A stretch of 62,375 nt of DNA, the filler included, from Globobulimina sp. (Eukaryota), in assembly GCA_003354225.1 (NCBI GenBank). It is 38 parts of 38 records of this genome, joined end to end, with 100 filler letters (N's around TTAATTAATTAA, not from the genome) between each part and the next. Parts side by side here need not be neighbours in the genome. Positions count along the whole stretch, not along the records: positions 3,291 to 4,835 come from PIVH01015017.1; 37 more parts are not named here. One strand, given 5' to 3'. Position 1 is the stretch's first letter; each line of letters begins with the position of its first letter. Made by a program: the position numbers and the translations under genes. Of the stretch, positions 964 to 54,160 are shown in pieces. The notes beneath the pieces are model-generated. The model saw only the letters and a program-made list of their open reading frames with translations, ran no database searches and was not told the DNA's origin.

Positions 964-1545
964 AATGGACTATAGAGAGGTCTGGAAATTAGAGAATTTA
1001 AGCAGTATCAGCAACGTTTATGTCACAGCAAATTCATTAAATATATACTGCCCGGTCAGCGTATTTATGAATGTAATCATTGGAAAACATCCAAATTATG
1101 CAAAAGCGATTAAAATTGTATATAAAAACACCAATACAGATCACCCAATTCATCGTTTAGTCATTCATGAGTTAATTCCGTCGACGGTGGTAATTAAAAA
1201 TAAAACAATGTTGCATTTGGATCCTATTATTGGCTCCAATACAGAGTCAACATTAATGGATTTAAAATGGGATATCCCTTTTCCGCGATATCTACATAAT
1301 GAGATTGAGATTTATTACATTAAGAAACAATTAAAATGGAGACCTTTCAATATGTGCATGTTTAATGTCCCTCTAAGTATCTTAAATAATAATTCATTAA
1401 ATGATATATTAACAAATAAAATCAAAGCAAATGTGCAATCGACATTTATTTTGTATACAATTGAAAAAGCGATGCAATTCGAATATGATGTGACCAAAAT
1501 CGACTATAAACCACTGTTGATTTATTTAATTAAGCCGTATGAGAT
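964..1545 (+). CDS. Hypothetical protein, 3'-partial
   Basis: MDYREVWKLE... open to contig end. No recognised domain. Confidence 0.5.
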
Positions 1546-1645
1546 NNNNNNNNNNNNNNNNNNNNNNNNNNNNNNNNNNNNNNNNNNNNTTAATTAATTA
1601 ANNNNNNNNNNNNNNNNNNNNNNNNNNNNNNNNNNNNNNNNNNNN
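1546..1645. other. Artificial contig spacer N44-TTAATTAATTAA-N44 (first of 37 identical spacers)
   Basis: Identical 100-bp block every ~1644 bp. The 12-mer has TAA in all six frames. Contig lengths fall monotonically 1545>1544>1543. Confidence 0.98.
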
Positions 1646-3190
1646 GCTATTAAATTTAAATGCTGATCCAACCATAAGAACACGCCGCGGTGAAACAGCA
1701 GAAAATCTTGCAAAAAAACGTGGGTTTCCAGCAATTGAACAATTGTTGCAATTCGCAAAAATGGGAGCCGGCGCATCGGAGCAAGTTAAAAGCGCAGTAA
1801 AACGTATCTCCACTCAAGATGGCATCATTGGTAATATTGCCGACATATTAAAGCAAAAGAAATATAAAAAAAGCTTAAGCTTAAGCTTAAGCAAAAAACA
1901 ATCACTATTTGTGATATTGGCAGATATTATGTTGCAATTAATTGAAAAGAAAGTAGCATTTAGTGATGATTTATTAAGTTTAGTATGGAAATTAGGTGAC
2001 GAAAAAGACAAAGACAGATTGTGGGAAGCCATTAAGAAGCAATGTGAAGATATATTGCGGCATAAGAATGACAAAGATTGGTATTGGTTACGAGAATATA
2101 TGCTAAAATCATCAATTTGGAATAGAGAAAGGGATGATTCCGTTAAGAAAGTCGTTAAGACGAAGGAAAAGCAGTCAGGTTTGTTGTTTACGAAAGCACA
2201 TCGCACATCGCACAGAGCACTTTAATATTGTTCTGAAAACAGACAATAAAGACAATGCTGGTGGAGATAACCCACCGGTACCTAAACTCCCCCAAAGCGC
2301 TTCGCAGTCAGTTGATGATGATCAAAACAACGCAGCACCGGAGGAAAGCGACGATGATGAAAAAGCAGCTGAAGAAGAGGGTAAATATGGTGTTAAAGAC
2401 ATACTGTATTATGAATTAGATGATTTATGCACTGCTGCGGAGAGTGCTGTCATTGGCAATACAGCTGAAGAAAAGAAAGATGCTGTGGATGACGATGATG
2501 AGAGTAAAACAGAATCGTTTGCCAAATTATTTGCAGACGTTAAGACTAATATAAAAAGTATAAGAAATGCGACCAAAGTGATGGAATCTGACAAATTGCG
2601 TCAAGATGATCCTCGTTATGAAGGATTACAACCAAAATACACGCATTCAGACTTAACAACGCAAGTACATCCAACTGTTGATTTTAGCGCGCATTTTCAT
2701 TATGATATAAATGAATATTTAGCTACATTGGTATTAGCGGCACATAACGTAAACCATAAATTCCAGCATGAAATGAAAGATAAATTTTTAATTAATCCAT
2801 TGACATTTCGTAATGAGGACGAAGGCGTTCGTTTTATGGAAGGTATATATATATATATATTGTATGCGCATATTGTGTTATATTTCAATGTACATACTGT
2901 GTTATTTCAATATATTGTATGTACATACTGTGTTATTTCAATATATTGTATGTACACACTGTGTGTGCTTTTTTTATTTTAGGTCCGGTAAAGAAATTTA
3001 ATCGCTGTCAGGCAAAAGCTGAAACCAAATATCTCGGCGCAAAATATCCGACAAGTGCGCGTGTCATAGATATTGTACGTTGCTCGTTGGTATTTGATAC
3101 AATCGATGGTTTAATAGCTGGCATTCGTAAATTTGATACAACGGTGGCCGCATCACAAATCATTTTGAAGGTTGTTCGAATTAAGAATAT
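1646..3190 (+). CDS. Ankyrin-repeat protein with C-terminal RelA/SpoT-like nucleotidyltransferase domain; partial at both ends; introns 2179-2242 and 2843-2982
   Basis: LLNLNADPTIRTRRGETAENLA is an ankyrin repeat end. Both GT-AG introns join ORFs 1743/2134/2919 in frame (QS-DNK; FME-GPVKK). GPVKKxxRCxAK...ARVIDIVRCSLVF...VVRIKN resembles RelA_SpoT-type motifs. Confidence 0.75.
2889..2973. repeat. 31-bp tandem repeat (~2.5 copies) in intron
   Basis: TGTACATACTGTGTTATTTCAATATATTGTA repeated. Confidence 0.85.
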
Positions 3191-3290
3191 NNNNNNNNNN
3201 NNNNNNNNNNNNNNNNNNNNNNNNNNNNNNNNNNTTAATTAATTAANNNNNNNNNNNNNNNNNNNNNNNNNNNNNNNNNNNNNNNNNNNN

Positions 3291-4132
3291 AACTGTATAT
3301 TCCTAAAAGCAATTCCGTGATCACTCCCATTTACTGAATAGCCCATTTCTTGTTTTTCAAAATCAACTCTCATTTCAATTACATCACCGGCACCCCATTT
3401 AATTCCATATTCTTCACATTCACCTAAATTGTATTTGTGACCATTACCACCATTATATCCATAATCTATCTCATTCCACTCAGCATCAACATTCCTATTT
3501 GATTGGATACCAATGAACATGTACCGGTAACCAATCCTTTCCTTACATGTCAACTTCCATTTATATTTATTTTTATTTTTGCTGCTTGCCTCAATTCCTA
3601 TACTTCCAAATGCATCGCCCCAATAACCATAACCATCGCCTTTGCTTGTAACAGTTTTCCCATTGTTTGAGATTGTAATCAATTTATTCGCGGTTTTGAA
3701 TGTGTCTACAACATTTCTATAGTAATCGCCATAATAATTATAACAAATTTGAATAATGGATATTGGAATGATTTTCTGTTTAATTGTTTTTTCAACTTTT
3801 CGTATGTAGCCAGTAACAATTAAACATTTTTGTTCATAACCCATCAAAGTATGCGATTTAATTATAAGCGATGTATTTATATTTGTATCAGGCATAGTTT
3901 CCTCTTTGTCTTTGTCATTTGCACTGATAACTTGGTCTGATTTTATTGTTTCTTCCTCAGATTGGTTTGCTTGAATTGCTTCGTACTTTTGAGCATCTGG
4001 GATTTGTATATTATTGGTCTCAATGCTATCATCCCTGGCGCATGAACAGCCGACTACAAATGTATCAAAATGTTGAATTATTTCATATGCAAACATACAC
4101 AACACGCATTATATAAAAAACATACTTCCCAT
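3291..4132 (-). CDS. SPRY/B30.2-like protein with N-terminal MGIGCSC acylation motif; intron 4054-4125; 3'-partial
   Basis: ATG GGA A|gtatgt...tttgtag|TC GGC TGT gives MGIGCSC. SPRY-type motifs YKWKL, MFIGI, WGAGDVIEMRVDF, YSVNGSDHGIAF. Confidence 0.8.
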
Positions 4133-4206
4133 GGACAGAAAGAGGTTTTCCGACAAGAATTAAATAAAAAAAAAACTAAAAACAAACTTAAAACATACTT
4201 AAAATA

Positions 4207-4764
4207 ATGGATGCTGAACAGGAATGGATCGCTAGAATAGTCAATTTGGAGAAAAATTTGGACATTCACGATAGAAAGCATCGTCTTAAAAAGTATAAAC
4301 AATGCTTTGTTGGAAGTGCAGCAATTTATGTTATGATTAATCTGAAATTTGCCACAAACTCTGTTGAAGCTGTAAAGTTCGGGAATAAATTGATTGAGTT
4401 AAAAATAATAAAACATGTCTGTGGAAAACATAAATTTAAAAACCAAGATTTATTTTATGAATTCATTCCTGGCTACAATAAACCTAATAAACCTATGAAT
4501 ATCTACGGAGCAATGGATTTATTTAAAGCTTCAAAACAAATCTCTGGTTTAAACATTGATGCTGATGCTGATGAAAAAAGTGAATCGGAACAAAATAAGG
4601 TCAAACAAGACCATTTTGCATTAATTGCAATTGATGAAAACGATGATGTGAAAACTGGTCAAAAAGCAATGAAATCTGTAAAATCAATATCAAAATTGTG
4701 TGGTTCGGAGCATGATGCATTGCATTTATTTCTCTGCAATTGTAAAAATTTTGAGATATGTTGA
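4207..4764 (+). CDS. DEP-domain protein (C-terminus probably chimeric or frameshifted)
   Basis: IHDRKHRLKKYKQCFVGSAAI...EAVKFGNKL...IIKHVCGKHKFKNQDLFYEF is a classic DEP domain. Confidence 0.85.
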   Translation: MDAEQEWIARIVNLEKNLDIHDRKHRLKKYKQCFVGSAAIYVMINLKFATNSVEAVKFGNKLIELKIIKHVCGKHKFKNQDLFYEFIPGYNKPNKPMNIYGAMDLFKASKQISGLNIDADADEKSESEQNKVKQDHFALIAIDENDDVKTGQKAMKSVKSISKLCGSEHDALHLFLCNCKNFEIC

Positions 4765-5592
4765 TATTCCAATTCGCGGCATACAAAATCCCACATTATG
4801 TCCACCCTTTTATACCGCTCTGGTTTTGCGGTCAGNNNNNNNNNNNNNNNNNNNNNNNNNNNNNNNNNNNNNNNNNNNNTTAATTAATTAANNNNNNNNN
4901 NNNNNNNNNNNNNNNNNNNNNNNNNNNNNNNNNNNTGTAGAAAAAATTGTCAGATCAGATGTGTAGAATTTAAATGCGATTTGTAGAATTTCTTTTTTTT
5001 CTTGATCTGATCTGACACCATCGTCGCATTGAAAGAACGCGTTTATGTATAGTTTAGAGAAAAAATTGTCTGGCATCACGAATGACGTAGAACTGAGCAC
5101 GTTCTTTTACAATATGTATTTATGGAAATTAATAAGTTAATAAATAATAATTATTGGTCATGTAATTCACAATTAAACAATAAATGTATTGACAATACAA
5201 TTGGCTCCAAATGAATACTGTGTCACGAAACCTTTTAATATGAAAATAGTATAAAAGTCAGTGTTGTGCAAAAAATAATGATTCGCACTTATATTTTTCA
5301 TCAAATACTTAGGTTTGTCCAACATATATAACTGCATGAAATTGTTTTTGTATTGTTTTTGTTTTCAAATGCATGGAGTTATATAACTTGACGACAAAAA
5401 CAATAAGTACGAACCGCTAATGAAACACAAATGTTTGGCTGTTTATAATATGTTTGTTAAACAGTGGATTGTACATCTTTTGAAATTTTGATGCATGCAC
5501 ATATTCTAAAAACGTACTTAAGCCACATATTTTAAAAACGCATTTGTACCTGAATCGAATACAACAACGGACATAATAATTTTATTTATAAT

Positions 5593-52617: not shown

Positions 52618-52954
52618 TATTCAATCAAACAGGAATGTTGATGCTAAGTGGAAGCAGATAGATTATGGATATGATGGATGGAGTGGTAATAAATGCTATT
52701 TAGGAAAAGGTGAAGAATATGGAATTAGATGGGGTGCCGGTGATGTAATTGAAATGAGAGTTGATTTTGAAAAACAAGAAATGGGATATTCAGTAAATGG
52801 GAGTGATCAAGGAATTGCTTTTAGGAATATACAGTTGGAAAAAACATATTATTTGGTTGTTCATCTACGTTGTGAAGGATCGAGCATTGTTTTAACTGAA
52901 AGTGAATTTGAAGAGCAAGAAAATAAAGCACAATGTCCATGTATAATTATGTAA
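52618..52954 (+). CDS. SPRY-like protein C-terminus ending in CaaX (CPCIIM); close paralogue of 3291-4132
   Basis: Near-identical nucleotide match to the reverse complement of 3291-3508. Confidence 0.88.
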
Positions 52955-53023
52955 TCTAATCTGTAACTGAATAATAATTGTTTTCTTAGTGTTTTGAAGT
53001 CTTTGTGTATTAATATTAAAGTA

Positions 53024-54160
53024 ATGGCAGACGTTTTAAACACCAGTCCGTCGATGAACAGTGTGAGTGTGTCGTACGACACCTCCTTCGACTCCCCATC
53101 CAATTACACAATGGGCCGCGCCGACTACGAAGAAGAAGGGCTAAAAAGAGCGTTTCTCGACTTATTGAAACTGACAATCCCCATCACCATCACCTCGCTC
53201 TTTGTGTCCTTGCTGTTGGCGGCAAACCTGATATGGATCGGTCACCATTCGAATGAAAAGGAGTTTGCCGGCGCAGCGTTGGGAAACATGATGGTCAACG
53301 TCATGGGCAATTCGATAATCATTGGCATGACCTCCGGCCTCGACACTCAATGCGGCCAAGCTTTCGGTGCTCGGCTCTACAAAATGATGGGTATATTGGT
53401 GCAGCGCTCGCTGTTGATGTCGCACATCGTTATCTGTGTAATAGCGGTAATATTTTGGTTCGCAGACGACATCCTCAGCGCACTCGGACAAAATGCAAAC
53501 GCAGCACACGAAGCTGCCCTCTTTATACGCATCTCGATAGCCTCATTGTGGCCCATTGCAATGTTCGGCAATTTGCGGAGATATTTGCAGGCGCAGAGAC
53601 AGGTCATTTTTATCCCCATCGCAGTGTTAATTGGCCTCATCGTCCAAATTGCTGCTCTCATTTTGCTGGTAAACGTGGCTGGCTTCGGCTACATCGGTTG
53701 TTGCATCGCGTTGCCCTCTTCGTATTGGTCCATGACTTTGTCGTTGTACGCCTTCACGAAATGCAGTGTGCCGTTAAGCAGAGCAGTGGACGCAACGTGG
53801 CCGGGTTGGGGCAAATGGGCATGGCGCGATTGGCGCGCTTTTTTGTCATTGTCTGTGGCGGGAACCTTCCAATTATGCGCAGAGTGGTGGGCGCTGGAAA
53901 TAATGGCACTGTTTGCCGGCCATTTTGGGTGCAAATACGTGGCGGCTTTGACGGTGACATTGAATATAATCGGAGTGGCGGCCAGATTGCCATTGGGGAT
54001 CTCTTTCAGTGCGGCGGTTTTGGTGGGAAATAAGTTGGGAGCACAGAGGGCAATGTCGGCCAAAATTATTTATGATTGCAGTATTGCGCTGTCTGTGGCC
54101 TCCGGCCTCCTGTTTGCTGCTTGCTTGTTTTTGTTGGCGGGGCCATTGTCGCATAGTTTG
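53024..54160 (+). CDS. MATE-family transporter, 3'-partial
   Basis: GLDTQCGQAFGA, LRRYLQAQ, CAEWWALE, VGNKLGA. Confidence 0.95.

Follow-up and report, generated by a model that had tools for sequence, protein, structure and literature searches.

Among the 38 unrelated contigs (1543-1545 nt each, joined by N/TTAATTAATTAA spacers) that make up a 62,375-nt stretch of DNA from Globobulimina sp. (GCA_003354225.1), hereafter the window, two carry fragments of related SPRY-domain genes, copy A and copy B, which differ mostly by amino acid replacements packed into a block of 22 codons. This raises the question of whether the block records only the divergence of two tolerant loops, or whether the two fragments sample a diversified recognition family, as a first-pass annotation of the window had proposed. 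By comparing the two copies with their relatives in public sequence data, we found that A and B are different members of a large foraminiferal family of small SPRY proteins of ~200 amino acids (aa), and that among four genomic copies of this family there is an excess of replacement over silent change at ~13-15 codons. Four segments are hypervariable, the block among them, and all fall at predicted loops that correspond in position to the ligand-binding loops of known SPRY domains.

Two gene fragments and their relatives

The fragments and the block that separates them are as follows.

3291-4835: contig of copy A, which lies on the minus strand
3293..3844, minus strand: copy A coding sequence, 184 codons, from the probable start methionine (MGYEQK...) at 3844 to the contig end
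3416..3481, minus strand: copy A hypervariable segment 3, the 22-codon block (EWNEIDYGYNGGNGHKYNLGEC); read-contig depth dips here, with loose ends at 3415, 3423, 3429 and 3470
52618-54160: contig of copy B, which lies at its first base
52619..52954, plus strand: copy B coding sequence, the 3′ part of a paralogous gene, 111 codons plus the stop codon at 52952-52954; SPRY score 44.9 bits
52646..52711, plus strand: copy B hypervariable segment 3 (KWKQIDYGYDGWSGNKCYLGKG), placed by pairwise alignment with copy A

Alignment of the reverse complement of 3291-3508 with 52619-52836 covered 218 nt with 0 gaps and 20 mismatches (90.8% identity; 219 nt at 90.9% by blastn), and in-frame comparison reproduced the earlier counts over 72 codons, namely 13 with amino acid differences (codons 10, 12, 13, 19, 21, 22, 24, 26, 27, 30, 31, 37 and 64) and 5 with silent differences only (codons 1, 4, 20, 29 and 56). 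As had been reported, 11 of the replacements fell within the block (3416-3481 versus 52646-52711), while the 41 codons after it held 2, and the peptides quoted for the block were exact. Statistically, the replacements were clustered (11/22 block codons versus 2/50 elsewhere, Fisher p = 1.3e-5; best 22-codon window, scan statistic p = 2.9e-4 with 100,000 permutations), and so were the nucleotide mismatches (15/66 in the block versus 5/150 in the rest, p = 2.2e-5). Both fragments encode SPRY domains, with Pfam SPRY (PF00622) scores of 36.2 bits for copy A and 44.9 for copy B, compared with 42.4 for P0002, a full-length relative, and a curated cut-off of 26.3. The description 'near-identical' overstated the likeness of the two, identity being 91% in nucleotides and 82% in amino acids. 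No third copy was found in the window by tblastn, the remaining matches having E > 3. The 72-codon length of the overlap reflects assembly fragmentation and not biology, because contig ends bound it on both sides: the contig of copy A stops at 3291, so that the 3′ end of the gene is absent, while that of copy B begins at 52618, and the 5′ part is absent.

Searches of protein databases yielded 7 close relatives (5 of 151 candidates in a near-length word-indexed search and 2 of 3 in a shorter-length one), i.e. P0002 and P0005 of Globobulimina turgida, P0004 and P0006 of Bolivina argentea, and three open reading frames (ORFs) on small NCBI contigs; the EukProt sets behind the Globobulimina and Bolivina sequences are presumably transcriptome-derived. 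Since the named relatives are foraminiferal, the source organism is a protist, in line with the first-pass annotation. An exhaustive hidden Markov model search returned 107 cluster representatives at E ≤ 1e-10, rising to 1004 at E ≤ 1e-3, and 6 of the 10 looked up were foraminiferal (Bolivina, Nonionella), the other 4 being ENA records. An exact 38-nt framework pattern matched two public genomic loci, L001 (a full gene, which encodes P0003) and L002 (a partial gene), and gave 0 matches among prokaryote genome contigs.

The family was also represented among read-contigs. Logan contigs of four public runs that matched the 818 nt of copy A with at least 80% identity were mostly 100-200 nt long and numbered 255, 192, 106 and 304 per run, and up to 35 distinct contigs carried an alternative letter at one block position. 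These read-contigs frayed at 3415-3429, 3470 and 3520, which are borders of the hypervariable segments, and their summed word depth was ~1500-5200 over the framework versus ~5-90 over the unique upstream part; as summed depth is not copy number, we limit the claim to dozens or more distinct variants. No RNA run was listed as containing copy A, and two of the runs used here are only presumed to be RNA, so that the counts bear on variety and not on expression. The large family that had been deduced from two copies was therefore borne out by the 7 database relatives, the two public loci and the 106-304 read-contigs per run.

The copies are dispersed paralogues, because copy A and L001 are alike in the coding region only, their upstream flanks being different, and because the neighbouring genes of copies A and B differ (a DEP-domain and a MatE-family gene, respectively). 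Upstream of its probable start, the reading frame of copy A continues without a stop codon as far as 4108 (3293-4108); homology to L001 starts at codon ~7 and read-contig cover drops above ~3830. All four genomic copies (A, B, L001 and L002) are open over their visible length, so the possibility that most copies are pseudogenes, which would have spoken against the first-pass proposal, was not realized in those examined, though some other copies look broken.

Constant framework and variable segments

Family members have a common layout of ~200 aa, in which a 40-residue two-helix N-terminal module precedes one SPRY domain. An AlphaFold2 model of full-length P0002 (209 aa, 94-row alignment; predicted local distance difference test score 94.8, predicted template modelling score 0.85) placed helices at 2-16 and 24-39 and, after them, a sandwich of 14 strands, in which three short strands (45-63) precede the Pfam SPRY core. 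Foldseek matched the model with a probability of 1.00 and template modelling scores of 0.60-0.69 to the SPRY domains of RanBP10/9, Ash2L, DDX1, TRIM9/67, SPSB1/3, GUSTAVUS and HERC1, and the model and these matches together showed the bent β-sandwich of the SPRY fold. By sequence profile, the nearest solved chains were HERC1 (1.8e-16), SPSB3, RanBP9/10 and TRIM9, with SPRYSEC-15 (8bv0, E = 6e-9) lower.

The features of the two copies that correspond to this layout are as follows.

3731..3826, minus strand: copy A N-terminal module (CLIVTGYIRK...IP..I..ICYNYY), predicted to form two helices
3614..3640, minus strand: copy A hypervariable segment 1 (GDGYGYWGD), in a loop that precedes the fourth strand, variable and with indels among 5 aligned members; loop 64-71 of the P0002 model
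3515..3538, minus strand: copy A hypervariable segment 2 (RIGYRYMF), with indels and as many as 5 different residues in a column; loop 98-102 in the P0002 model; read-contigs break at 3520-3521
3326..3394, minus strand: copy A invariant framework (GAGDVIEMRVDFEKQEMGYSVNG), identical in A and B, with three single-residue differences in four other covering members; top summed read-contig depth
52862..52882, plus strand: copy B hypervariable segment 4 (HLRCEGS), a loop before the last strand, 3-4 residues per column and indels among 5 members; loop 191-196 in the P0002 model

Variability was mapped on 7 close members, and for segments 1 and 4 on 5 aligned members. Within this close subfamily the sandwich framework was nearly invariant, even between genera; for example, in the framework GAGDV...AFRN (33 residues, GAGDVIEMRVDFEKQEMGYSVNGIDQGIAFRN) only five columns deviated, by one residue each, among six covering members. 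Set into it were four hypervariable segments at ~64-73, 98-104, 114-143 and 188-196 in P0002 numbering, in which columns held as many as 5 residues and indels occurred, and invariant framework flanked segments 2-4 (e.g. ...IGIQSNRNV... and ...VIEMRVDFEKQEMGY...). Segment 3 (114-143) comprises the 22-codon block and a position in YGI[KRLE]W. The block first seen between A and B is hypervariable across the family and not just in that pair, but it is one of four such segments and not the sole one. In the P0002 model, all four were loops or loop-edge positions.

These positions were compared with SPRY domains of known binding mode. In SPSB1/2/4 and GUSTAVUS, five variable loops (A-E) located on one face bind the substrate, and Tyr129, which follows 125-HSVG-128, is a key contact, according to an excerpt of PMC2923778; the invariant Tyr of ...DYGY... 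in the foraminiferal proteins may be equivalent to SPSB1 Tyr129. For SPSB3, an excerpt of PMC10972748 (Nature 2024) lists Ser132, Thr162, Tyr197, Arg213, Thr259 and Arg262 as loop residues contacting cGAS, and with an offset of 82 all six agreed with the residue identities of chain 8okx_B. Transferred to P0002, the contacts given in that excerpt fell at A75 (edge of segment 1), in loop 98-102 (segment 2), at G127 and L143 (segment 3), and at ~D190 and ~192-195 (segment 4). The variable sites are therefore neither buried nor scattered in sequence terms, because they coincide with the canonical SPRY binding loops; the first-pass annotation had regarded buried or scattered sites as contrary evidence, and its expectation held for location in loops of the model, in terms of sequence and not of exposure. 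Judged by alignment position, the four segments are the equivalents of the canonical SPRY ligand-binding loops, and by analogy with these the hypervariable loops would bind ligands.

Constancy also marked the N-terminal module. Its motif, G[YFW][ILV]R...IP..I..C..YY, occurred in 32 of 153 gathered family proteins, and the module had no consistent Pfam match at E ≤ 10 in any of the 8 members scanned; an Atlas search gave no usable match, and a word search with residues 1-44 retrieved only P0002 and P0003. In the same 8 members, Pfam at E ≤ 10 detected no PRY, RING, B-box, zinc finger, SOCS box, F-box or F-box-like domain. No obvious signal peptide was seen by eye in the sequence, no predictor having been run, and the N-terminus (MEVLIVNGYIRKVQK...) is predicted to be helical; the proteins are probably cytosolic. 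At the other end, P0002 and P0003 continue for only ~3-10 residues beyond the last strand, and coiled-coil-like tails are present in some relatives (P0004, P0005 and P0009). The module is not universal: the minus-strand genes of L001 (1268-1563) and L002 (427-905) share ~230 nt upstream at 79% identity, but L002 is without the ~110 nt that encode the two helices and starts with MDTF..., like Bolivina P0004. Since the module-coding part is absent there despite homologous upstream DNA, forms with and without it exist, and these seem to be subfamilies or isoforms. In addition, P0006 of Bolivina argentea (411 aa) has two SPRY domains with a copy of the module (G-Y-L-R...I..L.LIYY) between them; thus the module also occurs internally as a linker.

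Replacement excess, possible exchange and competing explanations

Selection was assessed on the four genomic copies by Goldman-Yang codon likelihood. Over the 72 ungapped codons, the model with a positively selected class (M2a) was preferred to the nearly neutral one (M1a) under all three topologies, with a likelihood ratio test statistic (LRT) of 12.3-13.8, and the selected class had w2 (its ratio of replacement to silent rates, dN/dS) of 4.4-5.3 and a proportion p2 of 0.21-0.22; for a 29-codon block with its own tree and branch lengths, the LRT was 11.3-13.6, with w2 of 7.5-11 in 45% of codons. Overall, the class comprised ~13-15 codons with dN/dS of ~4-11. In parametric bootstraps under the fitted M1a, none of 54 replicates over 72 codons exceeded 2.7 (observed 12.33), and for the block none of 89 reached 13.58 and one reached 11.29. 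When the variable codons were picked from other members, their dN was 2.3-11.3 times the gene-wide dS in five pairs, dN being saturated in L001/L002; the most telling pair, copy B and L001, had a dS of 0.047 and 1 silent-only codon versus ~28 replaced. By contrast, the flanks were under strong purifying selection (w = 0.14-0.17, p ≤ 4e-4 versus neutrality). Pairwise, the block dN/dS was 0.58, 1.18, 2.87, 3.14, 1.12 and 1.80 in the six comparisons and that of the flanks 0.15-0.94. Diversifying selection, as proposed for A and B, was thus not evident in that pair (0.58), but gained moderate support once L001 and L002 were added, and dN/dS > 1 at the loop codons is moderately supported.

Three other routes were set aside. 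An older mosaic segment had seemed indicated by the raised dS of the block (0.42 in A/B), which stems from multi-hit hypervariable codons; a mutation pattern specific to adenine, like that of diversity-generating retroelements, was ruled out, all kinds of base change occurring in the block; and a site-model run on 201 columns (LRT 25.3) was discarded for its doubtfully aligned gapped columns. Silent variation at amino-acid-invariant codons was no higher in the block (2/9) than in the flanks (7/43, p = 0.65), which argues against greater age as the sole account of the block.

With a probability of roughly 0.6, we read the family as a repertoire of small recognition adaptors, each consisting of a constant helical handle and a SPRY face, with four loops that differ under diversifying selection and are probably shuffled. 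The N-terminal module would serve as a docking handle, binding a common partner or itself, while the variable SPRY face would be directed, in each paralogue, at a protein or peptide of its own. Amino acid replacement under diversifying selection would generate the diversity, which exchange between copies would probably reshuffle.

A number of points weigh against this repertoire reading. The A/B pair taken alone gave a Nei-Gojobori dN of 0.244 and dS of 0.423 in the block, i.e. a ratio of 0.58, and the whole block with its own tree had w = 1.1-1.8, which did not differ from 1 (p = 0.31-0.84). The selection set comprised four copies, possibly from more than one organism, and the four-taxon likelihood code was written for this analysis; the choice of variable codons from other members is not phylogenetically independent of the copies tested. 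The bootstrap null for the block had its 95% point at 6.6-8.4 versus the nominal 5.99, so that the chi-square is anti-conservative, and the second batch of block replicates gave numerical overflow warnings. The block preferred the topology (A,L002|B,L001) by 2.7 log-likelihood units, whereas the flanks preferred (A,B|L001,L002) by 1.3-2.1; this conflict hints at exchange between copies or at convergence, which inflates site tests, and contigs of a multi-copy family may be in-silico chimeras. Broken copies exist as well: P0008 has the N-terminal module joined directly to the C-terminal framework by an internal deletion of ~115 codons, P0007 departs from the reading frame of the family beyond GAGDV through an intron or a frameshift, some read-contigs carry frameshifting indels of 1-2 nt, and one in run X2 skips 238 nt of copy A (window 3412-3651). 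Lastly, the SPSB3 contacts were mapped onto P0002 by hand through a profile alignment, with a tolerance of ±2 residues.

Some of these points would fit relaxed constraint alone, under which the loops are merely tolerant (dN/dS ~1) while the framework is purified, and there is neither selected diversity nor a repertoire function. The block-wide w of 1.1-1.8, not significantly above 1, and the A/B ratio agree with it, as does the fact that the same loop positions are the most variable in any SPRY alignment (entropy 3.2-3.9 bits in 88 distant relatives). However, M2a was better than M1a even though the latter includes a neutral class (LRT 11.3-13.8 against nulls exceeded in 0/54 and 0-1/89 replicates), and at pre-chosen codons dN exceeded gene-wide dS by 2.3-11-fold in five pairs, with ~28 replacements at a dS of only 0.047 between copy B and L001; we therefore hold relaxed constraint to be unlikely. 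A comparably low probability is given to concerted evolution, in which conversion homogenizes the framework, short tracts shuffle old loop variants, and the replacement excess is an artefact of forcing one tree on the data. Here, the site test remained significant under all three topologies and with the block's own branch lengths, silent variation at invariant codons was not raised in the block, and shuffling by conversion leaves the origin of many replacements with few silent changes unexplained. In favour of concerted evolution, framework codons are identical or nearly so in the four copies, silent sites included; many read-contigs are 95-99% alike across runs labelled with different organisms; block and flanks favour different topologies; and the internal-deletion forms show that copies rearrange. 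Any exchange of loop variants would leave no silent footprint, given that the framework codons are the same throughout the family. Mosaic evolution is compatible with the repertoire reading as an added mechanism.

We regard as very improbable an artefact, in which the two fragments would be allelic or wrongly assembled and most of the family would consist of dead repeat copies. The contigs are indeed only ~1.5 kb and end inside the gene, and frameshift indels and deletion forms do occur, but A and B differ at 9% of bases and in their neighbouring genes (DEP versus MatE), and the upstream flank of copy A differs from that of L001. Besides the 4/4 open genomic copies, the protein collections of two genera contain members that are full-length or have long open frames, and dead copies would not be expected to show a framework under such strong purifying selection (w = 0.14-0.17, p ≤ 4e-4).

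Gene neighbourhoods and known SPRY systems

Upstream of copy A and divergently transcribed from it lies a DEP-domain ORF (4192-4764, plus strand; Pfam 61.6 bits), which marks the contig as eukaryotic and places copy A in a neighbourhood of its own. On the other contig, a MatE-family transporter ORF (53024-54160, plus strand; Pfam 115.7 bits) starts 69 nt after the stop codon of copy B, and composition switches very sharply between the two, from the AT-rich SPRY gene with a third-position GC content (GC3) of 19% to MatE with a GC of 51% and a GC3 of 63%. The switch may reflect transfer of the gene, strongly biased codon usage or chimerism of the contig; close prokaryotic relatives of the MatE gene were not found in GTDB species genomes. 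Elsewhere in the window, direct or tandem repeats with units 86-98% identical occupy three other contig ends (39132-39368, 58657-59039 and 34151-34436) and are unrelated to the SPRY genes by self-BLAST, and an AT-rich stretch at 2846-2982 (contig 1646-3190) lies between apparent coding segments, with an intron-like GT...AG, a (TA)n run and a unit of ~33 nt repeated ~3 times.

The B30.2 domains of TRIM5 and the finTRIMs have a SPRY sandwich with hypervariable surface loops in which replacements are in excess, and the finTRIMs are multi-copy. The foraminiferal family shares with TRIM5α and the finTRIMs the sandwich and its hypervariable loops and, with moderate support, the replacement excess; like the finTRIMs it is multi-copy, and like both it is probably intracellular. 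It differs from them in its N-terminal region, which is a two-helix module of 40 residues where neither PRY, RING, B-box nor coiled coil was detected in the 8 members scanned, as well as in its length (~200 aa), its rhizarian origin and its nearest solved SPRY domains by profile, which are those of HERC1, SPSB3 and RanBP9/10 and not TRIM5. Membership in the TRIM-type B30.2 proteins, to which the first-pass annotation had likened the fragments, was accordingly not upheld, with PRY, RING and B-box absent in 8/8 and the N-terminus occupied by an unannotated module.

A second likeness is to the SPRYSEC proteins of potato cyst nematodes, which an excerpt of PMC5071358, where TRIM5 is also cited, describes as a greatly expanded family in which a stable scaffold bears hypervariable 'surface A' loops and some sites are positively selected; on that description, both are expanded families of small single-SPRY proteins with variable loops on a constant scaffold. 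SPRYSECs, however, carry a signal peptide for secretion into a host, and their N-terminal region is specific to nematodes, whereas the foraminiferal proteins start with the helical module, and as judged from sequence profiles the similarity is SPRY-wide, with no specific relationship indicated. With SPSB1-4 and GUSTAVUS the family shares the logic of a domain plus a handle, and the SPSB3 contacts listed in the excerpt cited above map to or beside the four segments by position; unlike them, the foraminiferal proteins lack a SOCS box, end ~10 residues after the last strand and have the handle at the N-terminus, and the SPSB proteins are few and conserved, with no hypervariable repertoire. Fbxo45-type proteins likewise have a short N-terminal helical module followed by SPRY and are among the nearest language-model neighbours (score 0.90), and IP..I..IC..YY loosely resembles, by eye, the start of an F-box; yet no Pfam F-box match was obtained at E ≤ 10 in 8 members, and there are two helices instead of three. 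The family would thus work like TRIM5α/finTRIM and SPRYSEC and is a member of neither. No published SPRY family of such design in foraminifera or Rhizaria was found in Creative Commons PMC and bioRxiv full text; subscription papers, the earliest reports on foraminiferal genomes among them, lie outside that scope.

Expanded SPRY families whose binding loops evolve rapidly are characteristic of host-parasite conflict, both in vertebrates (TRIM5, finTRIM) and in plant-parasitic nematodes (SPRYSEC), and by analogy the foraminiferal proteins may have a role in immune, self- or non-self recognition. A bolder version, which we put forward tentatively and consider doubtful, is that foraminifera have tens to hundreds of germline-encoded intracellular mini-receptors, each a two-helix module carrying four loops comparable to complementarity-determining regions, diversified by selection and exchange and recognising non-self proteins. 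Candidate targets of such receptors would be viruses, endobionts, prey or, on cytoplasmic contact, other individuals, and the N-terminal module would act as a new adaptor handle, possibly delivering the targets to a ubiquitin ligase.

If the repertoire reading is true, the same design in Foraminifera would mean that eukaryotes evolved recognition repertoires of this kind repeatedly, and if the non-self reading is true as well, it would be an independent rhizarian invention of the strategy of TRIM5, finTRIM and SPRYSEC. The foraminiferal version differs in its handle, which is unannotated, and seems to exist in very many copies, and the near-invariant framework beside each hypervariable segment would make the family easy to amplify and to survey across individuals and species. 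To our knowledge, almost nothing is known of how giant rhizarians tell self from non-self or handle viruses, endobionts and prey, and the family, if read correctly, would offer a first molecular entry to these matters in giant single-celled rhizarians.

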